Source: a virus. Taken from it: DNA of 64,000 nucleotides. Location of the stretch: the IMG/VR virus record IMGVR_UViG_3300036790_000219, positions 1-64,000 of that record. One strand, written 5' to 3'. Positions 5,916-62,311 of the stretch are shown piece by piece. Within the stretch, counting starts at the first letter, position 1. Every line of letters begins with the position of its first letter. The translations under genes and the position numbers were made by a program. Below the pieces are notes generated by a model, which was not told the origin of the DNA, searched no databases, and saw nothing but the letters and a program-made list of their open reading frames with translations.

Positions 5916-5919
5916 AAGT

Positions 5920-6323: not shown

Positions 6324-6375
6324 GCTAAATCCATAATGTTCCTGCCCAAAGTTCCTGCCCAAACGCGCGTGATTT

Positions 6376-6450: not shown

Positions 6451-6457
6451 ATTTTGA

Positions 6458-6528: not shown

Positions 6529-6529
6529 T

Positions 6530-6604
6530 GCCGGTGTAGCTCAGTGGTAGAGCATCCGAATCATAATCGGGTTGTCGCCAGTTCGATCCTGGCCATCGGT
6601 ACCA
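6530..6604 (+). tRNA. tRNA-Met/Ile2(CAU)
   Basis: TCCGA-ATCATAA-TCGGG (A32); CCA. Confidence 0.82.
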
Positions 6605-6609
6605 ACTTT

Positions 6610-6685
6610 GCTGGGTAAGCCAATCCGGTGACGGCGATGCGCTGTGGACGTGTCCAGGTCGGTTCAACTCCGACACCCAGTACCA
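6610..6685 (+). tRNA. trnH: tRNA-His(GUG) lacking G-1, A73
   Basis: ATGCG-CTGTGGA-CGTGT; T at -1, A discriminator. Confidence 0.85.
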
Positions 6686-6687
6686 TT

Positions 6688-6761
6688 AGGAGTGTAGCTC
6701 AACGGTAGAGCAGTGGTCTCCAAAACCACCGACCAGGGTTCGACACCTTGCACTCTTGCCA
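6688..6761 (+). tRNA. trnW: tRNA-Trp(CCA)
   Basis: GTGGT-CTCCAAA-ACCAC; CCA. Confidence 0.93.
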
Positions 6762-37259: not shown

Positions 37260-37496
37260 ATGACCCACATCATTGTTCACAACCATCTGCCGAAGCGGAG
37301 AACGGTTGACCAGCCAACACTGGGCAGGCTGTCTCCTGGCATGCCTCCTCAGAACAGGGATACTGAGGACGTACCTGGTTCTGGTCCATATACATTCGAA
37401 TCCAAGACCAAGCAAGAGGGTTGGGGCAAGTCTCACCATGCGTCACAAGAAGTAGTGAAAGACGCAAAGAAAAAGAAGAAGCGGCGAATCAAGTGA
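37260..37496 (+). CDS. leader-family small protein (MTHIIVHNHLPKRRTVD)
   Basis: Shared N-terminal motif; coupled to terL. Confidence 0.7.
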   Translation: MTHIIVHNHLPKRRTVDQPTLGRLSPGMPPQNRDTEDVPGSGPYTFESKTKQEGWGKSHHASQEVVKDAKKKKKRRIK

Positions 37497-39214
37497 CAGT
37501 CCTTGAACTGCCGTCAGTTCAGCTTCCTTCTCCACTCAATCAACCTAATGTCCCCGACGACCTTCTGGTTGAGATTGAGGCGTCACAACGTAGACGCCTA
37601 GAACACTTTCTGGCGGTAGAGCGTAACGGCCTTATTGAGCCAGAACTTGAGTCTTGTCGTAGAGACATTTTCTACTGGTTCACGAATTATGCGTGGACCT
37701 ATGATCCTAGGAATGCGGACGTAGAGGAGTCAGTCACCGGACAGAGACTACCAACGTGGTTACCGTTCGATTTGTGGCCTCGTCAGATAGAACTCATTCG
37801 CTGGTTTGACTTCCTGCTCAAGTCTAAGAGTGACGGTGCGCTGAAGAAGTCGCGCGATATTGGTTTCACGTGGCTAGCTGCTGCTTATGCTTGGCATAAG
37901 TTCCGTTTTGTTGAAGGCTTTGCTACTACATTTGGTTCGCGCGTTGCCATGCTGGTTGATCAGCTGGGTGACCCCACCACAATATTTGAGAAGATCCGTC
38001 TTATCTACAAGTCAGTTCCGAAGTGGATGTTGCCGCAGGGCTTCGACCCTCGTGAACATGACAAGTTCATGTTGATGATTAACCCCGCCAATGGTGCAAC
38101 AATCCGGGGTGAGGGTGGCGACGAGATGGGGCGTGGTGGTCGCTCGTCTCTGTACTTTATTGACGAAGCGGCCAAGTTAGAGCGTGCTGACCGAGTGGAT
38201 GCGGCCACGTCAGCTAATACTGACGTTCGTATCTGGGGTTCGTCGATCAATCCTCAGAACGAGAACAATCTCTTTCAACGCAAGTATACGTCCTTCCCAG
38301 CAGACCGTGTGTTTCGCTTTCACTACTCTGACGACCCTCGCAAGACCACAGAGTGGGCAGCGAAGAAGCGCGGTTCGCTGTCCCCGGAGATTTGGGCGGC
38401 TGAGTATGAGATTGATGATAGTTATTCGGTTGAGGATATCTGTATACCAGCCAGCTGGGTAGAATCTTCCCGCAAATTGAAAAAGCTATTAAAGGAAAAG
38501 CGGGGTACCACTCTTGAGCCTAAACGTGAGGGTATAGCGGGCGGTGACGTCGGTGGTGGTAAAGCGCAATCCGTCGTCATCGCCCGGTTTGGTGTCGTGG
38601 TTACAGAGCCTTCTGCCTGGCAAAATCCTGATACGATCGATACTGCCTTCAAGATGCTTGATTACTGCCAAGACCTCAAACTCCCGCCAAGAGCCGATCA
38701 GTACATCCCAAGAATTAAGTCGCTACGGTTTGATTCTATTGGCATTGGCCAGGGTGTGTCCGCTGCTCTAAAGCGCAACCCTCGGCCCGGTTTGATCGTT
38801 ACTGGTGTCAATGTTGGTGAGCCGGCAAGCGATGAGCGGTGGCCTGATGGCGAAGAAGCTACTGAGAAATTCGTCAATTGCAAGGCGGAAGCCTGGTGGA
38901 AGGCAAGAGAGTGCTTCAAGCGTACTCATGAAATGGTTTGCTTCCTGGAAGGTACTGGGGGCTTCGAACGGCCGATAGATGAGTTGATTTCTCTCCCAGA
39001 TGACTACCACAATCAACTTGTCACTATCCTTTGTCAGCAGCTTAGCCAGGTCAAGTGGCTACGGAATGAGAAAGGCAAGATCCTGATTGAGTCCAAGGCT
39101 TCGCTGTCTAAGCGGGGCGTTGGTTCACCGGACTTTGCCGATGCTTTGATTCTGACTTTCGCTGGCTACAATAAAGCAGAGAAGTGGGCCGCATTCGCCC
39201 GTGTGAGAGTATGA
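37493..39214 (+). CDS. terL: terminase large subunit
   Basis: KKSRDIGFTW; GGRSSLYFIDEAA; GGDVGGG; SPDFADAL; start reassigned to GTG 37493. Confidence 0.92.
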   Translation: MTVLELPSVQLPSPLNQPNVPDDLLVEIEASQRRRLEHFLAVERNGLIEPELESCRRDIFYWFTNYAWTYDPRNADVEESVTGQRLPTWLPFDLWPRQIELIRWFDFLLKSKSDGALKKSRDIGFTWLAAAYAWHKFRFVEGFATTFGSRVAMLVDQLGDPTTIFEKIRLIYKSVPKWMLPQGFDPREHDKFMLMINPANGATIRGEGGDEMGRGGRSSLYFIDEAAKLERADRVDAATSANTDVRIWGSSINPQNENNLFQRKYTSFPADRVFRFHYSDDPRKTTEWAAKKRGSLSPEIWAAEYEIDDSYSVEDICIPASWVESSRKLKKLLKEKRGTTLEPKREGIAGGDVGGGKAQSVVIARFGVVVTEPSAWQNPDTIDTAFKMLDYCQDLKLPPRADQYIPRIKSLRFDSIGIGQGVSAALKRNPRPGLIVTGVNVGEPASDERWPDGEEATEKFVNCKAEAWWKARECFKRTHEMVCFLEGTGGFERPIDELISLPDDYHNQLVTILCQQLSQVKWLRNEKGKILIESKASLSKRGVGSPDFADALILTFAGYNKAEKWAAFARVRV

Positions 39215-39221
39215 TTAAGCT

Positions 39222-39530
39222 ATGCTTTATTTGATAGGGGAAAAGGTCCGATGCATGCTTGCGGACTACCACCCCGGCAAGTCAATTCTGATTCTGACCG
39301 CTACGGCGGATAGCCTCTCCTTGGCTGAGGACTTTGACACAGCCTTCAATGATGTTGGAATAAAGTCAACAATTGATCGGCCAATGGACACGGTGTCCGG
39401 TTTGCATGTGACGGATCCGGTGCTCGCCGAATTGATTACTGCGGCCACACACATCAGGTGTATTATTGATCCCGTAACTTCTGCACCGGATGGCGTGATC
39501 GTAATTAACTTCGGTCGGAAGGCACACTAG
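39222..39530 (+). CDS. hypothetical protein
   Basis: ORF downstream of terL. Confidence 0.5.
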   Translation: MLYLIGEKVRCMLADYHPGKSILILTATADSLSLAEDFDTAFNDVGIKSTIDRPMDTVSGLHVTDPVLAELITAATHIRCIIDPVTSAPDGVIVINFGRKAH

Positions 39531-39787
39531 TGCTCACCTTTGATTCGCGTCACGCTCCACCGGATGAGCTCAAAGAGCTCCTGAAGAAGCCCTCTTCCCC
39601 AGACCGTGTTGAGTGTGGTGAATCTAATGACTATTGGATTTATGTTAAACGGTCCACGAAGCAAGTTGAGTTAGTCTCAAAACAGACCGGCCGGATTGTA
39701 GCAAACTGCACAGTTGAGCTTGCGCGGGATTTTGGCCTGAGAGAGCTCCAGATTTTGGCAGTCAAGAAAGCTCTCCTCCGTATGTAG
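39530..39787 (+). CDS. hypothetical protein
   Basis: Coupled ORF. Confidence 0.5.
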   Translation: MLTFDSRHAPPDELKELLKKPSSPDRVECGESNDYWIYVKRSTKQVELVSKQTGRIVANCTVELARDFGLRELQILAVKKALLRM

Positions 39788-40266
39788 TGGGCATGGGAAT
39801 CCCCAACGATGAATTTGGTAAGCGGTACTTCGAGGTTATTGAAGCCTTGCGCCAAACTTACGGCACACTAGAGCTTCTGCTTAGATCCGAATTTGGTCCT
39901 ACCATCACACCACCCCAGGTTATGGTGATTTACTATATTGGTGATCAGACGATTACGGTTTCTGAGCTCCGCCGTCGTGGCTATTACTTGGGCAGTAATG
40001 CTACTCACAATCTAGCGAAGCTGATATCTGACGGTTTTATTGAGAATACAAAAAGCAACACCGACCGGCGCGTCACCAACATTAAGTTGACTGTTAAAGG
40101 GAAGAAGCTTTGTATAGTGGTGGCTCAATTCTTTGCCAATACCAGTGCGAGACTTGAGGCAACGAACTCTGTTCATTTTAGTGCGTTTGTTACAGCACAG
40201 GAAGTTCTCTTGGCGATGAATCGCAACTGGGCGGAGAGCAGCCTCTATCATCGGCTAGGGAACTAA
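39787..40266 (+). CDS. MarR-family regulator, LdtR-like
   Basis: RGYYLGSNATHNLAKL..DRRVTNIKLT.KG. Confidence 0.8.
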   Translation: MGMGIPNDEFGKRYFEVIEALRQTYGTLELLLRSEFGPTITPPQVMVIYYIGDQTITVSELRRRGYYLGSNATHNLAKLISDGFIENTKSNTDRRVTNIKLTVKGKKLCIVVAQFFANTSARLEATNSVHFSAFVTAQEVLLAMNRNWAESSLYHRLGN

Positions 40267-40316
40267 TCCTTCAAAAACTCCTTTTCCTTCAAAAACTTGT
40301 CTGAAAGGGTAGCGTC

Positions 40317-40742
40317 ATGACGAGACGCCGTAAATCAACACGTGCCGGGGACATCAATCCCGACAGCCACGTGACTATGAGTTTACAGCAAGTGCTCGTG
40401 GTGGCTAGCATTCTGTTGGCATGTGGTTCTGGCTATGCTTATCTGGTCTGGAACCAGTCTGATGCTAAGACTGCAATTGCTGACGTTAACACCAAGCTTT
40501 CTACGGTGACAGTTAACAACGGCAAGGCTCTGGCGGATGAGGACAGTAAGCGCGAGCAAATGGGCAAGGACTTCCTAGCATCCACCGAGAAGATTGCTGA
40601 CAAGGTGTCGGATTTGAATACTGCCTTGGCCGTTCAACAGACTACATCTAAGCAGATGGCAGATACGTTACAGACGATCTCCAACCAACTCGGTGAGCTC
40701 GCTAAGGTTGCGGCTCCCACTCCAGTAGGAGCGCATAAATGA
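40317..40742 (+). CDS. membrane-anchored coiled-coil protein
   Basis: One TM helix then heptads. Confidence 0.65.
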   Translation: MTRRRKSTRAGDINPDSHVTMSLQQVLVVASILLACGSGYAYLVWNQSDAKTAIADVNTKLSTVTVNNGKALADEDSKREQMGKDFLASTEKIADKVSDLNTALAVQQTTSKQMADTLQTISNQLGELAKVAAPTPVGAHK

Positions 40743-40957
40743 GCCGCGTAATTATTCACAACCATTTACCAAAGCGTAAGACACGGGATGCTGACTGGTG
40801 GGTGGAATATGATTATAAACACCCCAATGGTTATAAAGGTCATGACATACGAATAGTTAAAGCTGGGACGAGGGCTGAGGCCATGGAAAAGGTAACGCGT
40901 TCGTCTGGTTTGGGAACACAAATCAAAGTTACTAGTGTTGAGAAAGATAGAGACTAG
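40739..40957 (+). CDS. leader-family small protein (MSRVIIHNHLPKRKTRD)
   Basis: Shared motif; directly before portal. Confidence 0.7.
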   Translation: MSRVIIHNHLPKRKTRDADWWVEYDYKHPNGYKGHDIRIVKAGTRAEAMEKVTRSSGLGTQIKVTSVEKDRD

Positions 40958-43056
40958 TGGCTCCTCGTTACCGTCCTACATCGTCTGTGCCTACTTTGGA
41001 TTCGGCAACGTTTATGCCGAAGCAGCCTAGGCATGCTTATGTGCGGCCCGGTAAGGTTATTGGTCGGGCTTCGATTAAGCAATCCACCATTAAGAAGGTC
41101 GCACAGGAAGGTAAGCAACTTCGTAAGTCTGCCACTGGTGACTCCTTCCAGAACTTCGCCCTCAATTTAGGCATTGGTACCAACAATGCACTGAGCCAAA
41201 GTCTCTACGGCTTCTACCCAATCACGCGGGTTAGAACACTTTTAGATTGGATCCATCGCGGTAGCTGGATCGGGGGAATTGCCGTAGACTTGCTGGCAAA
41301 TGATATGACGCGCGGTGGGGTGGAGATCCTAACCATAGAAGATCCTCAGAAGGTTGAGAAGCTGCAGCAAGGCATCACCCGTCTCCAGATCTGGAAGAAG
41401 CTGTGCTCAACAGTAAAGTGGTCCCAGTTGTACGGGGGTTGTCTGGCGGTCTTGCTGATTGATGGTCAGGATCCCAAGACGCCGCTACGTATTGATACCG
41501 TCACCAAGAATCAGTTCAAGGGATTGATGGTCCTCGACCGGTGGATGGTTGACCCTGACTTACAGCGGTTAGTTGCTGACTTCGGCCCCCACCTCGGTGA
41601 ACCAGAATGGTATCGTGTGGTAGCAGATGCTCCCGCCATGCGTAACCAGTCCATTCACTACACTCGCTGTATCCGGTTGCTTGGAATTGAGTTGCCATAC
41701 TGGCAGTGTATTATGGAGAATCTCTGGGGCTTGTCGGTCTTTGAGCGCATCTACGATCGCATGGTGGCGTTTGATTCCGCCACGACCGGTGCGGCGCAGC
41801 TGGTGTATAAGTCCTATCTGCGCACGTATAAGATGGACGGCTTGCATGAGGCGGCCACTGCAGCCGGTGACGCACTCGTCGGTATCTCTCAGCGCGTTGA
41901 GTTGATGCGTAAGTACCAGTCTATTGAAGGCATAACCCTACTCGACAGCAAGGATGAGTTTGCTGATACTGGTGGTGCGTCGTCGAGCTTCTCTGGTATT
42001 GCTGACTTGATGCTGCACTTCGCGGAGCAGTTGTCGGGTTCGCTCCAAGTGCCGTTAGTGCGGTTATTGGGTCAATCCCCTGCTGGTTTGAACTCCACGG
42101 GGGAAGCAGACCTGCGGACGTACTACGACAACATTCTACAACGTCAGGAGCACGATCTGCGTGAGGGTATGAACACGGTTCTCCGTGTTCTGGCTAATTC
42201 CCTTGCTATCAAGCTGCCGGAGGAATTCAATTTTAACTTCGTACCGTTGTGGCAACTCGATGAAACTGAAAAAGCTGATGTCGCCGATAAAACCACACGG
42301 ATGGTGTTGGAAACCGAAGCCGGTGGGTTGGTCTCTCAAAAGACGGCACTCCAAGAATTGCGGCAACTCGCCCGCGTCACGGGGCGGTGGACGAACATTG
42401 ACGACAAGATGATTAATGAGGCTAACGACGTCGCCGAACCGCCTGAAGCTGAAATGGGGGCCGCTGCTGAAGGCGGCGAGGGAGGCGAGGAAGAGGCCAA
42501 AGGCGGTGAGGGAGGCAAACCCCCTGGCGGAGAGAAAGGCTCCTCTGCAGCCGAGCTAAAGGGTTTAGAGGGCTTCAAACAGATCCGGCGGGCGGTGGGT
42601 GGCGGGAGCGACCGGGCTTTTGATTCTTACCAGCTTCCGGTCAGCGAAATAGCAGGTTTGCAGATTGTTATAGAAAACCAGGCCGGAACTATTCGTTCAG
42701 GGGAAGGGTGGAGCGTAGTAATGCCTTGTGCGTATGGTTATATAAGAAGGGTAGGGTCTGCGGAAGGGGCTGACGAATATTTGGATTGCTTTGTAGGACC
42801 AAATACGAGTTCTCGTGATGTTTGGGTTGTTGATGCAGTAAATCCGGAAACTGGGAAGTTCGATGAGCATAAAGTCATTCTTGGGGCAAAGACCTCTCAC
42901 GAGGCGCTTGATTATTTTCGCAAGGCTTACGACGATGGCGCAGCCAGACGTATAGGGGCAGTTACGCACTTTGACATGTCGGAGTTGCGATACAAAAACT
43001 GGATTGCTAGGGGCGATAAGCGACGACCACTTGCGATGGATCGAGTTGCGGCATGA
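40957..43056 (+). CDS. portal protein (DUF1073-type) with C-terminal InPase-like domain
   Basis: LYGG..LLIDGQD; GLNSTGEADLRTYYD; C-term IENQAG.IRSG..YGYI..LDCFVGP..FDEHKV. Confidence 0.88.
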   Translation: MAPRYRPTSSVPTLDSATFMPKQPRHAYVRPGKVIGRASIKQSTIKKVAQEGKQLRKSATGDSFQNFALNLGIGTNNALSQSLYGFYPITRVRTLLDWIHRGSWIGGIAVDLLANDMTRGGVEILTIEDPQKVEKLQQGITRLQIWKKLCSTVKWSQLYGGCLAVLLIDGQDPKTPLRIDTVTKNQFKGLMVLDRWMVDPDLQRLVADFGPHLGEPEWYRVVADAPAMRNQSIHYTRCIRLLGIELPYWQCIMENLWGLSVFERIYDRMVAFDSATTGAAQLVYKSYLRTYKMDGLHEAATAAGDALVGISQRVELMRKYQSIEGITLLDSKDEFADTGGASSSFSGIADLMLHFAEQLSGSLQVPLVRLLGQSPAGLNSTGEADLRTYYDNILQRQEHDLREGMNTVLRVLANSLAIKLPEEFNFNFVPLWQLDETEKADVADKTTRMVLETEAGGLVSQKTALQELRQLARVTGRWTNIDDKMINEANDVAEPPEAEMGAAAEGGEGGEEEAKGGEGGKPPGGEKGSSAAELKGLEGFKQIRRAVGGGSDRAFDSYQLPVSEIAGLQIVIENQAGTIRSGEGWSVVMPCAYGYIRRVGSAEGADEYLDCFVGPNTSSRDVWVVDAVNPETGKFDEHKVILGAKTSHEALDYFRKAYDDGAARRIGAVTHFDMSELRYKNWIARGDKRRPLAMDRVAA

Positions 43057-43793
43057 ACTATTGTAGAATTTATCGACAACTTATGCAGCGAGCTAAAACC
43101 CGGCAACCGCTGTTTGGTTGTTACTACGAGAGACACCATGTCAAACCTCGGTGTCTTGGTGGTTTGGATTTGAACCGGAATCTGGTTTTACTCACGGCTG
43201 AGGAGCATTATGTAGCACATCAATTATTGGTAAAGCTTTATCCAAACAATCGGAAGATTATTTGGGCAGCTTTGGCGATGACACGGGGTGCAAAAGGAAA
43301 TCGAGTATCTAACAAATGTTACGGTTGGTTGCGAAGAAAATGGTCAGAAGTCCAAACCAAAAATAATACCGCCAAATCGATCGAAGCCCGGCGAAAGATC
43401 AGCGCCCACGCTAAATTACGTACTGGTTCAGCTAATCCAATGTTTGGAAAGAGGCACCGGCAAGAGTCTTGTGCCTTAATAAGTAAGAATTTGACGGGGA
43501 AGAATACTGGTTCAAAACCTCCGCGTACTCCTGAGCATTGCACAAATCTTAGTGCTTCAATAAAGCAGGGATTCGTTGATGGGAGAAAAGTTAATTTTAA
43601 GGGGGATAGTCACAAGCCAGAGACTATCGAGGTTCTTAGAGTAAAAGCCCTTGAACTGTGGGAACGACAAAAGGCTGCGGGTTTTACGGTATCCAAGGCA
43701 ATGCGAAACAAGCAGCGAGAGGCCCTTCTTAAGTTCTGGGCAGATAGAAAAGCACGGGGATTAACTGGGCGACTTGGATCAGAATGCGCCTAG
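43053..43793 (+). CDS. HNH homing endonuclease with NUMOD3
   Basis: YYERHHVKPRCLGG..NLVLLTAEEHYVAHQLL; NPMFGKRH. Confidence 0.88.
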   Translation: MNYCRIYRQLMQRAKTRQPLFGCYYERHHVKPRCLGGLDLNRNLVLLTAEEHYVAHQLLVKLYPNNRKIIWAALAMTRGAKGNRVSNKCYGWLRRKWSEVQTKNNTAKSIEARRKISAHAKLRTGSANPMFGKRHRQESCALISKNLTGKNTGSKPPRTPEHCTNLSASIKQGFVDGRKVNFKGDSHKPETIEVLRVKALELWERQKAAGFTVSKAMRNKQREALLKFWADRKARGLTGRLGSECA

Positions 43794-44275
43794 TAATTAG
43801 TAATCACACGGCGCGTACTTGTGACGCTGAAAATGGGAGCGCCGTGATACGGGCGATCAAGCAGGCACAGCGTACAGACCCGCTCCAATATATGAAGGGT
43901 TTGAAGAAGATCCGACTCGTCCCAGACCGAGATGACTGGAATGCTAAGTACGACGCCGACGACGATGAGGTTCTACTCGAAGGCAAGTTCCTTGACAAGC
44001 CACTTAATGATATGGTCCAGGTTCTGCTACACGAGGCAGGCCACCGGGGCCAGTCTAAGGATTCTAAGACGTACGAGGCATTCAAGCGTCGTGGGCTGAA
44101 CTTGCTGTCGTTCTTCTTGGCGATGGCGAACAAGGCCCACCGTGAAGACTATGCTCGCAAGGGTGAGATCCCAAATATTGCTGAGGAAGTGTTTGCTGAG
44201 TCCTACTCCCGGTTTGCCTTAAAGCTGGACATGCCGGAAACACTCCGCAAATTTTGGCAGGAGAGAATACAATGA
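43784..44275 (+). CDS. leader-family zincin-like metallopeptidase
   Basis: MRLVISNHTARTCD leader; LLHEAGH; EEVFAESY. Confidence 0.7.
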   Translation: MRLVISNHTARTCDAENGSAVIRAIKQAQRTDPLQYMKGLKKIRLVPDRDDWNAKYDADDDEVLLEGKFLDKPLNDMVQVLLHEAGHRGQSKDSKTYEAFKRRGLNLLSFFLAMANKAHREDYARKGEIPNIAEEVFAESYSRFALKLDMPETLRKFWQERIQ

Positions 44276-44796
44276 CTCATATCGTTGTTCACAACTATCT
44301 GCCGAAACGCCGGACGAAAGACGCTCGTCCTTTAGCCCGTCAAGCAGTTGAGTTGACTTATGAAGAGGACGGAAAGCAATATAAGAGAAACTTTTCTACA
44401 GCAGAAGAGCAGGAGGCTTGGGTACGGTCTAAAGGTAATACAGTAAAGGTTATTTCACGTGAGAAAATTGTAAAGGACCGCCACACCCGTGGGGATGCAA
44501 GAGCGGGCGTCCACCCCTTCCGAAAAGGCGCTGATGTTGAAGTAAAGAATACTGGGAAAATTGGCTCAGTTATTGAGTCCGACGAGGACCGTACACTTGT
44601 CGATTGGCGGAATGGAAAGACCTCTCGGATTGACACCGATCGGTTGGTTTACTTCACCAGTTCTAGAGGCAAAGACCGCCACACACGCGGTGACCAAGGC
44701 GCTGCTACAATAGTTCGTCCGGACTCCAAGATCGGCAAGTACGGCGATGCTGTGAGTGGTGTGACTGGCTTGCCGAAGAAGGCTAACGGGCGTTAA
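44272..44796 (+). CDS. leader-family protein with internal KDRHTRGD repeats
   Basis: MTHIVVHNYLPKRRTKD; KDRHTRGD twice. Confidence 0.75.
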   Translation: MTHIVVHNYLPKRRTKDARPLARQAVELTYEEDGKQYKRNFSTAEEQEAWVRSKGNTVKVISREKIVKDRHTRGDARAGVHPFRKGADVEVKNTGKIGSVIESDEDRTLVDWRNGKTSRIDTDRLVYFTSSRGKDRHTRGDQGAATIVRPDSKIGKYGDAVSGVTGLPKKANGR

Positions 44797-44800
44797 AGCC

Positions 44801-45271
44801 GTGCACGTCGTCGTTCACAACCACCTTCCGCGTCGCCGAGCTCTCGATGCTCCTGGGGGAACCGCACTTTCCCAGTTGAAAGCATTCCTTGGTTCGCCAC
44901 GGGTGTCTAAGGAAGTGGCTAAGGAAGCCGTGCGGGTTTTAGGCAAGCATACGTACAAACACGGTGTCGGGCTCTCGGGCCACACGGCCGTTCATGCTGC
45001 GGTGCTTTTTGGCGTTTCCCAACTTGGCGGCGGTTCGGCTACCGAAGCAGTAGCAGCAGCGGTGGCAGGTTATGCCGTCACAGAAGTAATGAAGAAACTC
45101 GGTCTCACCTCAGAGAAGGCTGCTCAGCTTTTAAGTGTGTTGAGCCGTAAGCTTCTTGCTGCGTACCGAGAATGGCGAAAGGACCACGAGCTCTTCCGGT
45201 TAACCCCAGTTCATGATGCTCAGGATCCAATTGAGGTTGGTCTTGAGCGGTTTGCCCAAGCGTTGGCATGA
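44801..45271 (+). CDS. leader-family protein with hydrophobic helices
   Basis: MHVVVHNHLPRRRALD. Confidence 0.7.
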   Translation: MHVVVHNHLPRRRALDAPGGTALSQLKAFLGSPRVSKEVAKEAVRVLGKHTYKHGVGLSGHTAVHAAVLFGVSQLGGGSATEAVAAAVAGYAVTEVMKKLGLTSEKAAQLLSVLSRKLLAAYREWRKDHELFRLTPVHDAQDPIEVGLERFAQALA

Positions 45272-45409
45272 TCCAACACCTTCTCTTCCTCCTATTCGCG
45301 GTCTTTGCTGGGGCGGTCGTCTACCACTGGACTTCTGGAGTGGCTTTGATTGTGCTTGAATTTCTAATTGGTGGCGCGGTGGCCTGGTCCATCCCCAGTA
45401 TGGTTAGAC

Positions 45410-45622
45410 ATGATTGATGGAATTCTTCTGATAAGATTAGAGGATTGCGCCGCGTCCTCACGTCTCGGAATGGCCGACAAGGCTTTTCCACAAGATCTTG
45501 CACGGTTAGCGGCCCGTGGCCTCGTTGCTGCTGCCGATGGTGGTGGCTACAAAGTCACAGTTGACGGGTTGGCGTTCCTCCGCGTAGCGAAGCAGAGTTA
45601 TGAGCGACAAGAGCAAGTTTGA
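45410..45622 (+). CDS. small winged-helix-like hypothetical protein
   Basis: LAARGLV..YKVTVDG. Confidence 0.45.
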   Translation: MIDGILLIRLEDCAASSRLGMADKAFPQDLARLAARGLVAAADGGGYKVTVDGLAFLRVAKQSYERQEQV

Positions 45623-45854
45623 GATTTCCAATATCCCGGACGATAAGGCGGATGTTCGGTTTGCCCAACACCTTGTGGGCTTGAACGCCAAGCCCTCGGG
45701 ACGTATGCGTGTTGTGGTAGAAACCGGCCGTATTGAAATTGAATGGGTGGGGGCTATGGGTGCTATCTTCCTGCCTATTCCTGGGGTGTCAAAGAAGACA
45801 GCTGAGAACCTTGGCCCCCATGACCAAGTAGGCCGCGTCCGGCTTGATGGCTAG
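45600..45854 (+). CDS. hypothetical protein
   Basis: Coupled ORF. Confidence 0.5.
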   Translation: MSDKSKFEISNIPDDKADVRFAQHLVGLNAKPSGRMRVVVETGRIEIEWVGAMGAIFLPIPGVSKKTAENLGPHDQVGRVRLDG

Positions 45855-45857
45855 AAA

Positions 45858-46340
45858 ATGCAAGTTCATCCCCTCTTTGATCTTGAGCAACAAGTCTGGG
45901 TGGCAGAATCTGGCGTCGTTGCTAAAACACTTCGAGAGCTTCAGCAGAAGCTTCCTGGAGCAGAAATAATTGGGTACTACCCAAACGGCTATCAAGAGAC
46001 GGGACGTCAGACCTGGCCTCTTGTTGAAGGGCGCTTCTTTCTCCGGTCTAACTACCGGTCATCAAAGAAAGTTCAGAAGCGTCGTATCCTTCATGAAAAG
46101 CGATTAACCCAAGAGAAAGCTGAGTTGGAGCGTATTGAGGGTGAGCTCGCCCAAGAATCCAAACAGGTAGCCCCGCTCCATACCAATGGTCACACAGGGG
46201 GATGGTTACCAGAGCAAGATTCCCTCATTCGCAGAGGGGCAGCACAGGGTTGGTCGGCCGCTCAGGTGGCTGGTTTGACAAACAGGACACGTGCTGCGGT
46301 CCTCGGGCGTGCTCACAGATTAGGCATAAGCTTTCGTTAG
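45858..46340 (+). CDS. protein with C-terminal GcrA-like HTH
   Basis: W..EQDSLIRRGAAQGWSAAQVAGLTNRTRAAVLGRAHRLGI. Confidence 0.7.
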   Translation: MQVHPLFDLEQQVWVAESGVVAKTLRELQQKLPGAEIIGYYPNGYQETGRQTWPLVEGRFFLRSNYRSSKKVQKRRILHEKRLTQEKAELERIEGELAQESKQVAPLHTNGHTGGWLPEQDSLIRRGAAQGWSAAQVAGLTNRTRAAVLGRAHRLGISFR

Positions 46341-46354
46341 TATGTTGGTTTTGG

Positions 46355-46456
46355 GAAGGAGTGAGTTGATTCCTTTCGGACTCGCTTCTTCTACGGCCCT
46401 GCTCAGGTTAACGGTACCCCCGTCCCCCGACACCCCAACCGTCCCTGAGCAGGGCC
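46355..46456 (+). ncRNA. putative sRNA or leader: two hairpins, second with C-rich loop
   Basis: 12-bp stem 46355-66/46380-91; perfect 13-bp IR 46395-407/46444-56. Confidence 0.45.
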
Positions 46457-46477
46457 ACTTTTAAGAGAGTTAATTAG

Positions 46478-46939
46478 ATGAAAGAATTCAACTCTGTTTC
46501 GTTCTTTGCTGTGGAGAAGATGTCTGACGAACAGCTTCGTGCGCATGTTCGAAGTCTCCAAGACCGGGTAGAGCAACTTGAGTACCTGTTGCTGGAGATA
46601 CCGAAGCACGACGTCAAGTTCAAGTTCTGCCACCTCACGCCGACAGAAGAACGTTACTTGGGGATGGTTTACACCCAATCTTTTGTCTGTACCAAAGAGG
46701 CTATTCTGATAGGGGTTTACGGTGGTCTTCCGGAATGTGACGTCCCAGAAATGAAGATCATTGATGTTATATTCTGCAAGATTAGAAAGAAGCTCAAGCC
46801 CTTCGGTGTACAGATTGAAACCATATGGGGGCGTGGCTACTTTCTCGACCCAGAAAACCGTGCTAAGATGCGGGCCTTGATTGTGGCGTCACAAGACATC
46901 GTCGCCCCACTCGCGGGTGTTCTTAGAAAAGCTGGTTGA
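46478..46939 (+). CDS. receiver-less CtrA-like winged-helix protein
   Basis: HLTPTE..YGG..PEMKIIDVIFCKIRKKL..IETIWGRGYFL. Confidence 0.85.
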   Translation: MKEFNSVSFFAVEKMSDEQLRAHVRSLQDRVEQLEYLLLEIPKHDVKFKFCHLTPTEERYLGMVYTQSFVCTKEAILIGVYGGLPECDVPEMKIIDVIFCKIRKKLKPFGVQIETIWGRGYFLDPENRAKMRALIVASQDIVAPLAGVLRKAG

Positions 46940-47316
46940 TGAGCGTGCTCACACGTAGGCAACTTGCTCTTGGTCTGGCTGTGACTGGTGCAGCTGCTGG
47001 CTTCCCAGCGCCCAACAGTTTTGCACACGGAATGATTGTAAATGGGCAGGTCGAAGTTGGGGATATCTCCTGGGCTTCGCTCTACCAAGATCTTCGCAGT
47101 ATCTATGAAGAGTATTACGATACTACCCTCGTCCCAGGATCTGCCTGGGATGTGCTTTTGCAGTTGTATGCTGAGCATGTTTACCGGGTTCAGTCTTTGA
47201 CTATTAATGTCAACTTGGCGGATTTCAATTCTGGGGAAGAGTCGTTCCGTGATCTTCTTGGTGATGACCCAACGCTTCCCAACAAGAAGAAAAAGGGACT
47301 TGTGAACGTTGCATGA
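46936..47316 (+). CDS. hypothetical protein with Tat-like signal
   Basis: TRRQLALGLAVTGAAA. Confidence 0.55.
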   Translation: MMSVLTRRQLALGLAVTGAAAGFPAPNSFAHGMIVNGQVEVGDISWASLYQDLRSIYEEYYDTTLVPGSAWDVLLQLYAEHVYRVQSLTINVNLADFNSGEESFRDLLGDDPTLPNKKKKGLVNVA

Positions 47317-47507
47317 GGGTTATCGTCCACAACTACATGCCGGGAACGGTACGGGACGCTGCCACAGCAAGCCGAAAGCCGAAGGCCCACAAACACAAAC
47401 ATTCTCACGACCACACTCAGGAGTGTGGGGATACTTGTGCGTGTGATGACTGTCGTGAGGACAGAGGCTTCTTACCCTTCCGTGATTCGAAGCCCCGTAA
47501 GAGCTAA
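47313..47507 (+). CDS. leader-family His/Cys-rich small protein
   Basis: MRVIVHNYMPGTVRD; HKHKHSHDH..CGDTCACDDC. Confidence 0.6.
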   Translation: MRVIVHNYMPGTVRDAATASRKPKAHKHKHSHDHTQECGDTCACDDCREDRGFLPFRDSKPRKS

Positions 47508-48323
47508 ATGCCTCGTAGACCGCCTAGAAGAGACACCGCAGAAATGCGGAAGACGTGGCTGCGTGCCCGACGCGCGGAGCATCAGTTCGGGCGGGGTCTC
47601 CGTTCTCTAGCGCGACGCTGTGGTGAGCTTACCCAGCAGATGTACGACCGGCGAGACCCACTGGGTTCTTCGGCGCGGCTTCGTACCCTACTTAGGAACT
47701 ATGCCCAGGCACTCCGACCTTGGGCCCAAGAGACTGCCAAACGGATGGTACTGGATGTGTCGCGGCGTGATGAGGTCTTCTGGGCTGAGCGATCTAAGGA
47801 GATGGCTCGCAATCTGATTGAGGAACTCAAGACCGCGCCAACTGGCGTAGCGTTACGCGAACGAACTCAGGAAGCAGCGGCGTTAATTATGTCGTTACCA
47901 CTCGAGGCGGCTCAGCGGATTGAGAAGTTCACGGTCCAAGCTTTGACTGACTCGTCCCGTGCTGACGAGGTTGCTAAGGAGATTATGCGGACCGGGCACG
48001 TGGCTAAGGGACGAGCGAATTTGATTGCCCGTACCGAGGTCTCTCGAACGGCTTCGCTCCTCGTCCAGGTTCGTTCTGAACACGTTGGTGCAGAAGGTTA
48101 TATCTGGCGCACTTCCAACGATATCGACGTTCGTAAAGAACACAAGCGATTGGCTGGTAAATTCGTTCGTTGGGATGCACCTCCCGTAGCTGGTCCAAAG
48201 GGAATGCGTTATCACGCAGGACAAGGTCCGAATTGCCGGTGTTACGCAGAAATAATTCTGCCGGAGTATGCACCTAATGGTTGGCGTGCTCCAAGATTTC
48301 GTGCTGAGGCTGTGAATGTGTGA
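47508..48323 (+). CDS. head morphogenesis protein (MuF/SPP1 gp7-like)
   Basis: RANLIARTE; YIWRTSND..VRKEH; HAGQGPNCRC. Confidence 0.9.
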   Translation: MPRRPPRRDTAEMRKTWLRARRAEHQFGRGLRSLARRCGELTQQMYDRRDPLGSSARLRTLLRNYAQALRPWAQETAKRMVLDVSRRDEVFWAERSKEMARNLIEELKTAPTGVALRERTQEAAALIMSLPLEAAQRIEKFTVQALTDSSRADEVAKEIMRTGHVAKGRANLIARTEVSRTASLLVQVRSEHVGAEGYIWRTSNDIDVRKEHKRLAGKFVRWDAPPVAGPKGMRYHAGQGPNCRCYAEIILPEYAPNGWRAPRFRAEAVNV

Positions 48324-49110
48324 GTTGTACAAAATCATTTTTCCAAATGGTAAGCTTTATTTTGGGATGTCAATTAATGCCCTTCGGCGCTTTAAAGGGC
48401 ATATTAAATCAACCACAAACAAATCAAAATTACCTGTTCATAATGCAATGCGAAAATACGGTGTAAATAATTGTAAGGTTATGATTATTTGTGTAGGTTC
48501 TACTTCCTATATTGCGAAATTAGAGCAATGGGTCATTGCAAAGTATCAAACCCAAAGTAGAAAATTTGGCTACAATGTTTGTATTGGGGGTGAAGTTGGC
48601 CCAATGACTGGAAGAGGGCATTCACAAAAGTCTCGACGTAAAATGAGCATGAGCCAGCGAGTACGTATACGTACTGAAGAAGAATTAGCTCGCCTTGCTA
48701 CGTATGGGCGTTATGAACGGTCACCAGAAACACGTGCAAAGAATGGTGCTAGTATGGTGGCCCGCCATGCACGTGGTGAGATTCCGTTAGATACTCCGGC
48801 GCAATTAGCTGCATTTGAGAAAGGTAGATTGCCCAGGCCTTGTAAGGAAAAAACAAAGATCAAACTAAGCAAAATAATGTCTGGACGCCCTGGCAAATAT
48901 TATTACCATAGTCCGGAAGCGATACAACGTGCTTCTGCTTCGCGAAAAAAGTGTTGGAAACAAAAACGGGCGGAGTCAATCCAGTGTGGTGTTCCGTTGC
49001 TTTCAGCAACACAAGAAAAGGCTCTTGCTCGCGCACGTGCGGTGCGTTGGCATAAACCGCGCACGCGGTCTGCCCCCCGGTTCCGTGCGGAAGCTGTAGA
49101 GGCCCTCTGA
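48316..49110 (+). CDS. GIY-YIG homing endonuclease with NUMOD3
   Basis: LYKIIFPNGKLYFG..RRFKGH..LEQWVI..GYNV; HSQKSRRKMS. Confidence 0.85.
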   Translation: MCELYKIIFPNGKLYFGMSINALRRFKGHIKSTTNKSKLPVHNAMRKYGVNNCKVMIICVGSTSYIAKLEQWVIAKYQTQSRKFGYNVCIGGEVGPMTGRGHSQKSRRKMSMSQRVRIRTEEELARLATYGRYERSPETRAKNGASMVARHARGEIPLDTPAQLAAFEKGRLPRPCKEKTKIKLSKIMSGRPGKYYYHSPEAIQRASASRKKCWKQKRAESIQCGVPLLSATQEKALARARAVRWHKPRTRSAPRFRAEAVEAL

Positions 49111-49394
49111 TGCACATCACTGTTCACAACCACCTTCCGAAGCGGAAGACACGTGATGGTGGGGAGTCAAACGCAACCGAGCAAGTCAACAAGTTTGGTT
49201 CGTTGGACTACCTCTCAAATATGTACCAGTTCTCTGGTTTGGCCGAGTGGCCTGACGGCAAGAAGACAGGCATGTACTTCATGGCAAAGACGCTGGAAGA
49301 AGCCAAGCAGCGATTTAAGTCACAGGTTAATTCTGGTGGCTGGCCAAAGATCACGAATGTGAAGCTTGCTAAAACCCGGCCTGAGCCACGGTAA
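49110..49394 (+). CDS. leader-family small protein (MHITVHNHLPKRKTRD)
   Basis: Shared motif. Confidence 0.7.
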   Translation: MHITVHNHLPKRKTRDGGESNATEQVNKFGSLDYLSNMYQFSGLAEWPDGKKTGMYFMAKTLEEAKQRFKSQVNSGGWPKITNVKLAKTRPEPR

Positions 49395-58459: not shown

Positions 58460-59764
58460 GTGCTCCTCGACGCCGACTTCAAGGAAGGGGAACACCCGCG
58501 CGGCCAGCCGAAGAACTCTGGACAGTTCGCGTCTAAGCCTGGCGGAAAAGGTTCGGAGAAAGGCAGCGGTGAAGGCGGTAAAGAAGCTCAGGCCGGTGAA
58601 CAGGGTGAGAAGAAGTCTGTTGGCAAGGTTGCCCCGCGTGAAAAACAGATAGAGGGTACGGTTGAACTCTCTGCATACTTGCGCAAGATCGCCAATATCA
58701 ACAGGATGCCGAAAGGAATGAAGTCTCAGTCTCAGTTTATTCTAGATAACGGCCAGAACTATGTCGCTAACGCCAAGACGTACGAGGGTCCTAGGGATCC
58801 AATGCATGAGTGTTATAAAAATGCAACCCTCGCTGCTCTAAGCAATAAGGACCGCACTTATGTTGAAGGCTATATGACTGTCCATGGTGTTCCAATTGAA
58901 CACGCTTGGACTGTAGATAAGACTGGCCAGGTTTACGATTCGACCGTTACCCCAGATTTGGGGATATCAGGTTATTTTGGCGTACCGTTCAAAACTGATT
59001 ACGTTCTGGCATCAGGATTGCTGAATAAGGTTTATGGCTTGCTTGGGCACAATAGTCGAAAGACGCTTGATCCCTTATTGAAAGGTCAAGTTAAGGACTT
59101 CCGGGGCGAGGTAGATCCGGATTCGCTCTCGCCTCAGGTGATTGCTGATCGGATAGCATACGCAGACGCCGTGGTGCGGTCTATTCCTCCTACGGATAAG
59201 ATTAATACTCCTGAGCGTAAGCAGATGCGCAAGGAGATTGCGGACAAGCTCTACAACAAGGATATTGACAAGCGCAAGCGTAATCGTGAAGCAACAATTG
59301 TCTTAGGCTTACCCGGTGCTGGTAAAAGCACATTCATGGACCCGTTGCTCAAGGATGGCTACTTGAATATGGGTGGTGATGAAGTCAAATATGAGATACC
59401 AGAATTTGCTGGCGGCGCGGGCGCTTTTGCCGTACACGAGGAAGGTTCTGGGATCATGCGGGATGTTCTGCAGCGTGCCGTTACAAATGGCGACAACCTG
59501 GCTTGGGAACGTGTGGATTCCCCGGATAAGATTGTAAGTGACCTCGAAAGTCTAAAGAAGGCTGGATATAAGGTCAACGTCAAGTTGGTGGATGCTTCGC
59601 CTGAAATCGCGATGAAGTCAGCGGTGAAACGTTTCTTGAAGACGGGGCGCTACGTCTCCCTTGAGAATATAAAAGGTTATGGGGGCGCACCGCGTGATGC
59701 GTACGAAGCGGCCAAGAAGACTGGCTTGCTAGAATCAAGTGAGGAGCTTAAACGTGGATCTTGA
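58460..59764 (+). CDS. head-associated multidomain protein: HPRG motif, Cys/His papain-like domain, zeta-toxin-like P-loop kinase
   Basis: EHPRGQPKNSGQF; CYKNA..EHAW; GLPGAGKST..DEVK..HEEGS. Confidence 0.72.
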   Translation: MLLDADFKEGEHPRGQPKNSGQFASKPGGKGSEKGSGEGGKEAQAGEQGEKKSVGKVAPREKQIEGTVELSAYLRKIANINRMPKGMKSQSQFILDNGQNYVANAKTYEGPRDPMHECYKNATLAALSNKDRTYVEGYMTVHGVPIEHAWTVDKTGQVYDSTVTPDLGISGYFGVPFKTDYVLASGLLNKVYGLLGHNSRKTLDPLLKGQVKDFRGEVDPDSLSPQVIADRIAYADAVVRSIPPTDKINTPERKQMRKEIADKLYNKDIDKRKRNREATIVLGLPGAGKSTFMDPLLKDGYLNMGGDEVKYEIPEFAGGAGAFAVHEEGSGIMRDVLQRAVTNGDNLAWERVDSPDKIVSDLESLKKAGYKVNVKLVDASPEIAMKSAVKRFLKTGRYVSLENIKGYGGAPRDAYEAAKKTGLLESSEELKRGS

Positions 59765-60659
59765 GGCAGTTCTAAAGGAACTCCAGGGCGATCCGAACGC
59801 GGCGGCGAACGCCAAGTTCTATGCTGAGCTTTTGGCTGGCAGCGAAGACGAGGACACGCGCTCTCTGCGCGACTTCGTGGATAAGCTAGCCAAGCAGAAC
59901 GGTGAGAGCGGAGAGGAGGAGGACAAAGGTAAGGAGGAAACGTCTACTGCTAAGGACCGCCGCACAATTACTCTCGACCGCGATGCCCGTGATATTGAGT
60001 ATTATACCACGGAAGAGCTTGGTCCCCAACGGGAACGGACTCCTGAAGGCTTCTTGATTTGTTACGACGTGCCGGTGGCACGTACTGGCGAGATGACTTA
60101 TGGTCCTGGTGAAACCCCCGTTCCTACTGGTCGGGATGGGCGGGTCAAGATCCACCGCCGTGAAGGTGAAGTCTTCGCTGCCAAGAGCATGCGTTCGCTG
60201 AACGGTAAGCCGGTGACGGACGATCATCCGCCTGTGGACGTGGACCCCAAGAACTGGCGGTTCTACACGCGGGGGATGGTTGTTAACCCCCGGCGCGGTG
60301 AGGGGGAACACAAGAGCTTTCTGGTTGCTGACCTAATCATTCTTGATCATGATTTAATTGAGGACATCGAATCGGGCAAGCGCGAGGTGTCCTGTGGTTA
60401 CAACCCAGACTACCTCCAGATGTTAGATGATCGTGGAGAGCCAGTCGCAGGTGAAGGTGAGCAGGTAAACATTATTTACAATCACCTGGCTCTGGTTGAT
60501 CGTGGACGGTGTGGGGCACGGTGCTCCATTGGCGATCGTAAAACAGTTGATGCTCTGGCACAAGAGTTTGTGCGGGCAACGGAATATCGTGCTATCCGTA
60601 AAAAGAAGCACAAAGCAAAAACTCGTCCTCGGGTGGTTATCTTTAACCACACACGCTAG
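59739..60659 (+). CDS. prohead protease (DUF2213-type)
   Basis: TPEGFLIC..PVARTG; GKPVTDDHP; SGKREVSCGY; NHLALVDRGRCG. Confidence 0.88.
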   Translation: MRSLNVDLEAVLKELQGDPNAAANAKFYAELLAGSEDEDTRSLRDFVDKLAKQNGESGEEEDKGKEETSTAKDRRTITLDRDARDIEYYTTEELGPQRERTPEGFLICYDVPVARTGEMTYGPGETPVPTGRDGRVKIHRREGEVFAAKSMRSLNGKPVTDDHPPVDVDPKNWRFYTRGMVVNPRRGEGEHKSFLVADLIILDHDLIEDIESGKREVSCGYNPDYLQMLDDRGEPVAGEGEQVNIIYNHLALVDRGRCGARCSIGDRKTVDALAQEFVRATEYRAIRKKKHKAKTRPRVVIFNHTR

Positions 60660-60770
60660 TTTCTTTCAAAATTCATCTTGGCGCTGGTCGATCCTTGCGG
60701 TCGCTGTGGCCTGCGCTGTTCCATACGCGACCGTAATTGTCGGAACCTCATGGGAAAGGAGAAAGACCCC

Positions 60771-61706
60771 ATGTCTACCAAATCTGTACTTCGTAGGCTT
60801 CAGAAGGCATTCTCGGCGAAGGATGAGCGCGCATTTGATGATGCGATGGAAGAGCTCGAAGAGAAGGAAGACGAAGCCCACGACGAAGAAGACCCGGACA
60901 CCGTCGAAATCCACAATCACATTCCTGGTGAGGATGGTCTCGGCGAAATGCCGCCAAAGGATCCAAAAATGCCCGGTGCACGTGACGACGAAATGCCGGA
61001 GTGGTTCAAGAAGCACCAGCAGGATTGTGTGGACCGCTTCAAGTCCCTCGACGAAGGCGTGGCTGGCCTGAAGAAGTGGGCTGAGGAAGAGGGTAAGGAA
61101 CCTCAACATCAGGACGACGAGGAAGATCCGAACCTCGAAATGGGAATGGAAGATCGTCGGAGCGATGATCGTCGGTCTGACGATCGCCGTCATGGTAAGG
61201 ATGCCAAGGATGACGAAGCCAACAAAGCCATTCTTGGCGAGTTGGAATTCGAATCTCCTCCTGGCACTGGTGATAAGGCGAGCAAGGCACGGGATAGTGA
61301 GTATTTGGAAGAGTCCTTCCAAGACACGATCTCGAAGGCCGAGATCCTTGCACCAGGTATACGCGTGCCAACTTTCGATCGTGCTGTTGACCCCCGTAAG
61401 TCATTCCGCACCATCCATGGTCTGCGTTGTACGGCACTGGATCTGGCCTACACCAAGCCGGAAACCCGTGGCGTTCTTGATGTGGCCCTTGGCGGGCGAG
61501 CACTCGATACCAAGGGTCTTGGTTACGGTGCGGCGCGCGTTCTGTTCAATTCCGCAGCTGCGGTAGTTGCCACAAACAACAACTCTCGTGCCACGGACCG
61601 CAGTACTACAACGACACCAACTGGCGGCACACAGAAGGGTCGGCTGAACTCGATTGCCGACATCAACCAGCGTAACGCAGAACGTTACGGCCGTAAGTCG
61701 GCCTAA
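60771..61706 (+). CDS. scaffolding protein
   Basis: Acidic helical protein; KAEILAPGI; RBS AAGGAG before ATG 60771. Confidence 0.78.
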   Translation: MSTKSVLRRLQKAFSAKDERAFDDAMEELEEKEDEAHDEEDPDTVEIHNHIPGEDGLGEMPPKDPKMPGARDDEMPEWFKKHQQDCVDRFKSLDEGVAGLKKWAEEEGKEPQHQDDEEDPNLEMGMEDRRSDDRRSDDRRHGKDAKDDEANKAILGELEFESPPGTGDKASKARDSEYLEESFQDTISKAEILAPGIRVPTFDRAVDPRKSFRTIHGLRCTALDLAYTKPETRGVLDVALGGRALDTKGLGYGAARVLFNSAAAVVATNNNSRATDRSTTTTPTGGTQKGRLNSIADINQRNAERYGRKSA

Positions 61707-61732: not shown

Positions 61733-62311
61733 ATGAAAGATAACATCCTCGTTCCCGAGCGCAAATTCCGCGTTCTTGGACGGCACCGTACTTGTGATAC
61801 GTCGTACACGTTCCGTATGACGGCAGGTGCGGCAGGCGACATCTCTCGTGCCCACCCGGCGTCTATTCAGCCATGTTTGGGTGATCCTACGAACTTCCCG
61901 ACTGCATATGGTCAACCAGTTGTTGTTGATTCGGTCTCAGAAGGCGTGCGACCGATTGGTGCGGGGGACAGTGCTCTCACCCAGATTTGGGGTGTGACGT
62001 GTCGTCCATACCCAATTCAGCAGTCCACGACTTCCAACAACTACGGTGAGGTCAATTACGGATCGATTGCTCCGCCGTTGTTACAGCCCATCGACGTCAT
62101 GACGGTAGGATACATGATGGTGCCGGTGGTTGGTGCCCCAATAAAGGGCGGTTCCGTGTGGATTTGGTACGCGGCCTCAGGTGGTGGCCACACGCAAGGC
62201 GGTTTCGAAGCTGCCAACACGGGTGGCAGTACACTGGCGCTGAACGGTAACTATGCCTGGAATTCGCCACCCGATACCAACGGTATCGCCGAACTCAAGA
62301 TTGTCGTGTAA
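61733..62311 (+). CDS. capsid cement/decoration protein
   Basis: FRMTAGAAGDISR; position between scaffold and MCP. Confidence 0.75.
   Translation: MKDNILVPERKFRVLGRHRTCDTSYTFRMTAGAAGDISRAHPASIQPCLGDPTNFPTAYGQPVVVDSVSEGVRPIGAGDSALTQIWGVTCRPYPIQQSTTSNNYGEVNYGSIAPPLLQPIDVMTVGYMMVPVVGAPIKGGSVWIWYAASGGGHTQGGFEAANTGGSTLALNGNYAWNSPPDTNGIAELKIVV

Follow-up and report, generated by a model that had tools for sequence, protein, structure and literature searches.

Why should seven otherwise unrelated open reading frames (ORFs) in the head module of a phage begin with the same short peptide? The question is raised by the virus record IMGVR_UViG_3300036790_000219 of IMG/VR, a 120,057-bp sequence with direct terminal repeats, whose first 64 kb (positions 1 to 64,000) are hereafter called the window. 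Between positions 37260 and 49394 of the window, seven ORFs share an N-terminal leader of 15-18 residues, and the leader core, [IV]-H-N-H-[LI]-P, is identical to an invariant motif of the phage scaffolding protein. The answer towards which we lean, if only slightly beyond an even chance, is that the shared N-terminus acts as a two-part, removable propeptide resembling the capsid-targeting sequence (CTS) of phage T4 and loads cargo proteins into the capsid. All genes in the studied region lie on the plus strand, and coordinates refer to the window unless stated otherwise.

A leader shared by unrelated proteins

We confirmed all seven ORFs, their coordinates, and their shared N-termini as claimed in a first-pass annotation of this DNA, which had also described the bodies of the encoded proteins as unrelated. 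Once the leaders are removed, pairwise similarity among the seven bodies is indeed not significant, and scans of the seven proteins against Pfam and PHROGs return no significant family. The leaders conform to the consensus M-x-[RH]-h-h-h-H-N-[HY]-L-P-[KR]-R-[KR]-[TA]-x-D, with Ala usually the next residue.

The most upstream leader ORF (37260..37496, 78 aa) begins with MTHIIVHNHLPKRRTVD at 37260-37310, and its orthologue P0024 bears the same leader. A -1 frameshift joining this ORF to the large terminase gene was considered and rejected; the arrangement is explained by the overlap (GTGA) between the TGA stop of the ORF and the probable GTG start of the terminase at 37493. The second ORF (40739..40957, 72 aa; MSRVIIHNHLPKRKTRD, then Ala) lies directly upstream of the portal gene, which it overlaps, and has the orthologues P0019 and P0022; in the related contig L021, a leader ORF occupies the same position with an HNH gene intervening before the portal. 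The third (43784..44275, 163 aa) carries the weakest copy, a degenerate leader (MRLVISNHTARTCD, then Ala), and its start is validated by the orthologue in the related contig L018, which has a full leader beginning with MRYVVHNHFPARTVD. The body of this third protein contains HEAGH and EEVFAESY, a metalloprotease-like (HExxH) motif resembling that of a small zinc metalloprotease, and the HEAGH protein is conserved in L018 and in a further contig, L007. A protein atlas gave a weak lead to the anthrax-lethal-factor-like (ATLF) family and nothing more, and the AlphaFold2 model, with a predicted local distance difference test (pLDDT) score of 49, was too poor for a structure search.

The fourth leader ORF (44272..44796, 174 aa; MTHIVVHNYLPKRRTKD, then Ala) encodes two KDRHTRGD repeats (44473-44495 and 44671-44693; repeat family D11) about 66 residues apart, which may be extra processing sites that split the protein into domains. 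The fifth (44801..45271, 156 aa, GTG start; MHVVVHNHLPRRRALD, then Ala) has the orthologue P0015. A shortened leader (MRVIVHNYMPGTVRD, then Ala) precedes the His/Cys-rich body of the sixth (47313..47507, 64 aa), which abuts the MuF gene, and the seventh (49110..49394, 94 aa; MHITVHNHLPKRKTRD, then Gly) belongs to a family whose members P0002, P0003, P0004, and P0013 all bear leaders. Four of the window bodies have orthologues that keep the leader, namely P0024, P0019, P0015, and P0013. A looser N-terminal pattern identified two additional, degenerate copies past the window, at genome positions 66856-67065 (L020:2856-3065; MKPRVKIINHVGRRRTGD, then Ala) and 67592-68032 (L020:3592-4032; MHRKYVVHNTRD, then Ile). 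Both lie in the connector region, where they flank a phrog_302 virion structural protein, and both have orthologues in L013 and L017.

The leader is specific to these positions. In a six-frame scan of the whole genome, the core H-N-[HY]-[LM]-P occurs only at six leader N-termini and once inside the scaffold, while the N-terminus encoded at 43784, which reads S-N-H-T-A, was detected in looser scans only. A degenerate DNA pattern gives 11 matches versus 1.2 expected from shuffles, and five of the copies are detectable as a 46-nt direct repeat. Selection on the leader nevertheless acts at the protein level, because the invariant His, Asn, and Pro residues each use two to three codons (the Leu uses four) and the DNA upstream of the leader ATGs does not align among the copies.

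Searching 5.8 billion proteins with a profile of the first 40 residues brought up about 22 more leader proteins, all of them without a name or a Pfam domain, from short contigs of JGI, ENA, and Logan. A profile search against protein representatives was dominated by full-length P0002 and returned its body homologues P0003-P0005, not leaders. Additional copies occur in the relatives L007, L013-L018, and L021, and leader-bearing proteins number about 40 in total. L007, a viral contig of 5.9 kb with a MuF that shares 74% identity with that of the window, has four leader ORFs with bodies unlike those of the window. By their bodies, the first 31 leader proteins assembled form 20 families (BLASTP E < 1e-3) with no detectable similarity between families; in 30 of these proteins H-N-H begins within residues 6-10, and in 19 of the 31 Ala directly follows the leader Asp. 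The putative cargo proteins range from 49 to 531 residues. At every locus examined, leader ORFs are located in the head module (in a stretch that runs from just upstream of the large terminase, through the portal-MuF interval, to just after MuF) and in the connector region. Several of the bodies are not orphans, since orthologues exist in relatives. The motif can also be internal, as in P0025 (...RRVVVHNYLPVRKAKDAIHNHLPVNKTRDF...), and P0004 ends in ...RRIVIHNH, possibly at the end of its contig.

GenBank phages searched with the leader peptide and with the scaffold contain no carrier of the leader and no close scaffold, and 185,579 representative bacterial and archaeal species genomes gave only two matches, both by chance and inside ORFs of two Treponema genome bins. 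Among viral contigs, the strict leader DNA pattern had no match and a looser one matched L007 only, a pattern scan of metagenomes gave two chance matches inside unrelated proteins (GKIHNYFPHRRTGD), and P0022 and P0031 were sought in viral contigs but not located. The literature searched contains no mention of the leader motif, and DUF2213 itself is barely studied.

The scaffold motif, the protease, and putative cleavage sites

The sole internal match to the leader core in the 120-kb genome is VEIHNHIP at 60903-60926, which the first-pass annotation had correctly located inside the scaffolding protein (60771..61706, 311 aa). The ATG of this gene is preceded by the ribosome-binding site GGAAAGGAG, and the cement gene has the same one. 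Among 109 scaffold homologues, the motif [IV]-E-[IV]-H-N-H-[IVM]-P is present at approximately residues 45-57 in 67 of the 69 closest, some of which carry it as a tandem pair, against a mere 2 of the 40 most distant. When 34 scaffolds are aligned, H48, N49, H50, and P52 are invariant, and no positions in the acidic N-terminal half of the protein, which is variable elsewhere, are better conserved.

Leader and scaffold motif also occur together. For a co-occurrence test, seven viral contigs were recovered via the scaffold alignment. Within the head-module sequence present, leader-type N-termini were found in all six contigs that have the scaffold motif (L013-L018), although in L016 only a degenerate leader, MARVVLHNYM, was seen. 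No leader ORFs were found in three genomes without the scaffold motif, namely L019, PB1, and the nearest isolate, Edwardsiella phage vB_EpM_ZHS (hereafter ZHS; 57% capsid protein identity). The leader protein P0031 and the motif-bearing scaffold P0095 are each listed on a JGI contig 25,394 nt long, and the identical length makes it probable that this is one and the same contig.

Upstream of the scaffold lies the gene for the DUF2213 prohead protease (59739..60659, 306 aa; Pfam DUF2213 E = 4.8e-46). In an AlphaFold2 model of P0040, a natural protease-scaffold fusion, the protease domain is confident (pLDDT > 90), and an RRTVD linker and the HNHIP motif both fall in low-confidence, presumably disordered segments, which suit a cleavable linker and a short linear motif. 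Foldseek searches with the modeled protease domain returned T4 gp21 (5jbl) as the best match with a probability of 0.98, followed by herpesvirus proteases, and on this basis the DUF2213 protease appears to have the gp21 fold. T4 gp21 cuts after Glu in an [LI]-x-E motif, which makes it plausible that a protease of the same fold cuts after Asp.

Sites resembling the second half of the leader, [KR]-R-[KR]-[TA]-x-D, recur in the shortened form [KR]-[TA]-x-D in the protease, scaffold, capsid, and cement proteins, at positions where a prohead protease would be expected to cut, as well as in cargo bodies, and the individual T-x-D motifs that the first-pass annotation had listed for the capsid (RTVD, LTFD, KTHD, RTID) and cement (RTCD) proteins are all present. 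In the protease, a putative self-cleavage site, IGDRKTVD followed by Ala, lies right after the protease domain (KTVD at 60540-60551), and IGD[RHQ][RK]TVD directly follows the DUF2213 domain in the window, in L013-L018, and in the natural protease-scaffold fusions. For proteases of the gp21 type, self-cleavage of the C-terminus is documented in phage SPN3US (PMC5694885). Most scaffold homologues contain D[KR]A[RK][KR]A[RK]D, then Ser; scaffolds have two further conserved sites, and the window scaffold has such conserved [KR][AT]xD sites, for example ASKARD, then Ser. The cargo bodies contain [KR][TA][KR]D at 9 places, compared with 0.9 expected from shuffles.

The shell proteins carry sites of the same kind at their N-termini. 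The cement (decoration) protein (61733..62311) has an N-terminal extension that ends in LGRHRTCD, then Thr (RTCD at 61787-61798), with its Pfam domain beginning at residue 23. The major capsid protein (DUF2184/Major_capside; 62345..63535) has LGRFRTVD, then Met (residues 30-33; 62432-62443), KTHD, then Gly (residues 59-62), and RTID (residues 64-67; 62534-62545), then STGAF; RT[IV]D plus STGAF stands right before the conserved fold of the protein. Among related phages, the structure of the E217 capsid protein leaves residues 1-65 unseen (PMC10329688), and residues 1-30 of the XM1 capsid protein are missing from cryo-electron microscopy maps. LGR[HF]RTxD is common to the capsid and cement N-termini in the window (as DNA repeat D7), L013, L016, and L018; L017 has the related KHRTTD and KYRTVD, ZHS has RARTRD in both proteins, and the cement protein of PB1 is without an N-terminal extension. 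LGR[HF]RTxD looks like a separate propeptide class of the shell proteins, with the same putative cut site at its end.

The C-terminus of the protease has a different origin. The first-pass annotation had grouped its ending, VVIFNHTR, with the leader; the sequence is present, but it is the scar of a tandem duplication and not a copy of the leader, and we rejected it as a targeting motif. A conserved 25-residue protease segment (60465-60539), in place of which ZHS has an equivalent 23-residue stretch, recurs as a decayed, degenerate tandem copy at 60630..60734, which reads RVVIFNH, TR, a TAG stop, FLSKFI, and then LALVDPCGRCGLRCSIRDR; VVIFNHTR forms the C-terminus because of this duplicate. The protease and scaffold are in the same frame, with the one TAG stop between them (60657-60659) lying inside the decayed duplicate, and in ZHS, PB1, L013, and L014 a single fused protein comprises both. 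In this phage, too, a protease-scaffold fusion might arise if the TAG is read through. ARAGORN identified 38 transfer RNA (tRNA) genes (241-6761 and 17686-17777), among them a suppressor tRNA with the anticodon UUA (1360-1434), which may have a bearing on this TAG. The head genes are intact under the standard code, and there is therefore no general recoding.

Capsid targeting and its alternatives

How might such a leader act as a capsid-targeting propeptide? Its first part, M-x-[RH]-h-h-h-H-N-[HY]-L-P, copies the motif [IV]-E-[IV]-H-N-H-[IVM]-P from the presumably disordered acidic N-terminal half of the scaffold and would use that motif's own contact, so that a tagged protein would be drawn into the scaffold core during prohead assembly. 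Candidates for this contact are scaffold self-association or a site on the shell or on the protease. The second part, [KR]-R-[KR]-[TA]-x-D, usually followed by Ala, would be the cut site of the DUF2213 prohead protease. Once cut there, a tagged protein would lose the tag and remain in the head in its mature form, mostly small and often basic, to be ejected together with the DNA.

The sequence-level support for this proposal comprises the leader motif and its conservation, the spread over at least 20 body families, its sequence identity to the scaffold motif and their joint occurrence across loci, the enrichment of the putative sites and their positions, and the fold match of the protease; physical recruitment, cleavage after Asp, presence in the virion, and ejection are what we infer. 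Those comparative predictions of cargo addressing that could be tested computationally all came out as the model requires. The capsid-cargo reading of the first-pass annotation is partly supported, by leader conservation, the scaffold match, site placement, and the gp21-like fold; one of its details, the protease C-terminus as a targeting motif, is wrong. A stronger version holds that the tag is portable, such that imitation of the scaffold would suffice to load any protein into a DUF2184/DUF2213-type capsid, where the protease would then cut after Asp; this we regard as slightly less probable than an even chance would have it.

Several observations weigh against the capsid-targeting proposal. 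The entire clade is uncultured and known here from sequences alone, and the co-occurrence sample is small, with six loci compared to three. We infer [KR]-[TA]-x-D as the cut consensus of the DUF2213 protease from this analysis itself, and the match to gp21 is moderate (E ~3e-3, TM ~0.5 on the target). The single-chain AlphaFold2 model of P0040 shows no confident contact of HNHIP and no docking onto the protease. The cement protein is expected to lie outside the shell, and cutting of its RTCD by an internal protease would need explaining. Finally, the bodies of the leader proteins are mostly basic, yet not significantly so against a crude background of small ORFs (p = 0.10).

Other explanations must be compared with capsid targeting on the same evidence. 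The leader could be a substrate tag of the prohead protease, composed of a docking motif and a cut site, that serves the timed activation or inactivation of late proteins, in the manner of a pro-enzyme, or a transient role in assembly, with neither retention in the virion nor ejection. The sequence evidence for protease sites fits this explanation equally, the scaffold that carries the same motif is normally degraded and expelled, and the metalloprotease-like cargo might need a pro-form. We nonetheless consider it unlikely: prohead proteases of the gp21 fold are generally active inside proheads, so their substrates must be inside as well, 20 unrelated and fast-turning-over body families fit a payload better than they fit assembly factors, and the docking that such a tag calls for is not seen within the P0040 chain. 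Nor do we find it probable that the leader is an uncleaved assembly tag that binds the scaffold, portal, or shell through HNHLP, with [KR]-[TA]-x-D serving in binding and the tagged proteins staying as minor head or connector parts. [KR]-[TA]-x-D sites coincide exactly with domain boundaries, where the protease domain ends and where the Pfam cement domain and the conserved capsid fold begin, and recur inside cargo bodies, and the N-terminal 30-65 residues of the capsid protein are unseen in the structures of related phages. The uncleaved tag would, for its part, accommodate the two degenerate leaders on conserved connector-region genes and the RTCD of an externally located cement protein.

Recognition by a different protease, without any capsid role, could involve either the HExxH protein encoded at 43784 or a host enzyme. 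The gene for the HEAGH protein lies among the leader genes, with conserved counterparts in L007 and L018, and host-cleaved shared leaders have a precedent in Staphylococcus phage 80alpha, where the capsid and scaffold proteins carry a mimic of the N-terminal extension found on ribosomal protein L27. The HExxH protein is itself leader-bearing and so looks like cargo, however, and the motif has its twin in the scaffold while the cut-site consensus also flanks the DUF2213 domain; with only the two chance matches in Treponema bins among the bacterial and archaeal genomes, we give this explanation little credence. Least probable of all, to the point of being barely credible, is an element that acts at the DNA or RNA level or in translation, as a recombination linker, a shared initiation region, or a regulatory nascent peptide. 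Although the 46-nt direct repeat and the homing endonuclease genes nearby would be in keeping with such an element, synonymous sites vary freely while the amino acids are fixed, the region upstream of the ATG is unconserved, and the motif is found inside proteins as well (the scaffolds, P0025, and the end of P0004).

Genomic setting and comparison with known systems

The phage belongs to a lineage type characterized by a DUF2184 capsid protein, a DUF2213 protease, a Phage_portal_3 portal, and an E217/Pam3 cement protein, and a DNA-level search of GenBank phages with the studied region gave no match. A possible small terminase starts at 34633. Between the large terminase and the leader ORF at 40739 are small ORFs, one of them MarR-like; this MarR-family winged-helix regulator (39787-40266) lies between terminase and portal, inside the head module. 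The portal gene (40957-43056) has a C-terminal inorganic pyrophosphatase-like (InPase) domain fused to it, a fusion found in L018 too. An HNH endonuclease gene (43053-43793) separates the portal from the leader ORFs at 43784, 44272, and 44801, and small ORFs fill the interval between the leader ORFs at 44801 and 47313. The MuF gene (47508-48323) is followed by a GIY-YIG endonuclease gene that precedes the leader ORF at 49110. MuF and the adjoining endonuclease share the ending APRFRAEAV (48290-49110), which looks like a duplicated target left when the homing endonuclease inserted. An endonuclease gene occupies the position after MuF in L007 and L014 as well (NUMOD3-type in L014), and a further GIY-YIG-like gene starts at 63611.

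Between the leader ORF at 49110 and the Zeta-toxin-domain protein lies a module of Wzy_C-type and exported proteins. The Zeta-toxin-domain protein (58460-59764, 434 aa) has a P-loop domain and an N-terminal EHPRGxxxxxGQF motif and whose gene lies directly upstream of, and overlaps, that of the protease. In L016, in L018, and, with a variant start, in L017, the protease ORF is 572-588 aa long and opens with the same EHPRG motif. This suggests a fusion of the EHPRG-motif region with the protease in these contigs, which in turn suggests another route for cargo packaging.

The principle of a capsid-targeting leader is known from T4; what would be new is a variant, in an unrelated, uncultured lineage, whose tag reproduces an invariant motif of the scaffold. 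If correct, it would constitute the second clear case, after the T-even phages, of a shared targeting peptide on diverse, fast-changing proteins delivered by the capsid, and a packaging tag like the CTS would have evolved independently a second time, in phages of an unrelated lineage. The protein payload ejected by an entire uncultured phage clade would then be readable from sequence. In T4, such capsid-delivered internal proteins are anti-defense effectors; lists of candidate injected effectors could therefore be drawn directly from metagenomes by means of a tag that is readable in sequence. That the tag matches a scaffold motif suggests a simple and testable mechanism in which cargo imitates scaffold. 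[KR]-[TA]-x-D, cut after Asp, would be the first cleavage consensus for the widespread, uncharacterized DUF2213 prohead proteases, and the tag is a possible tool for packaging foreign proteins into phage heads.

The closest known counterpart is found in T4, where diverse internal proteins share only a capsid-targeting sequence of 10-20 residues that directs them to the scaffold core and is removed by gp21 (PMC3012670, PMC5694885). As with the CTS found on IPI-III and Alt, internal proteins of T4, a short N-terminal leader is borne here by otherwise unrelated, fast-evolving proteins, and its end has an acidic residue just before the cut (a putative one here) and a further preferred residue two positions upstream. 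T4 also sends this cargo to the scaffold core, and its protease is the best fold match of the present one. In contrast to T4, the putative cut here follows Asp and not Glu, the tag repeats a motif that lies within the scaffold protein itself, and the leader genes are interleaved with those of terminase, portal, and MuF. There is no sequence similarity between the two leaders, and the present system, known from its sequences, belongs to an unrelated lineage with a non-T4 head module.

In the giant phages phiKZ, 201phi2-1, and SPN3US, many head proteins are cleaved by a protease resembling gp21, whose short consensus places an acidic residue ahead of the cut; the substrates have several sites each, and the protease removes its own C-terminus (PMC5694885). 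Most propeptides of ejection and inner-body proteins in these giant phages exceed 100 residues in length, and no single peptide is common to them, whereas here a single tag of 15-18 residues is reused. In encapsulins, a short linear peptide addresses diverse cargo into an HK97-fold shell, much as proposed here; encapsulin tags, which usually sit at the C-terminus and contact the shell protein directly, remain uncleaved, in contrast to the N-terminal, scaffold-like, and probably removed tag of this phage. The MuF-fused polymorphic toxins and polyvalent proteins offer a last comparison, in that this phage likewise encodes MuF and, next to its protease, a Zeta-toxin-domain protein. In those systems the payload is joined covalently to a head protein, whereas the leader described here would address its cargo through a small, detachable tag.

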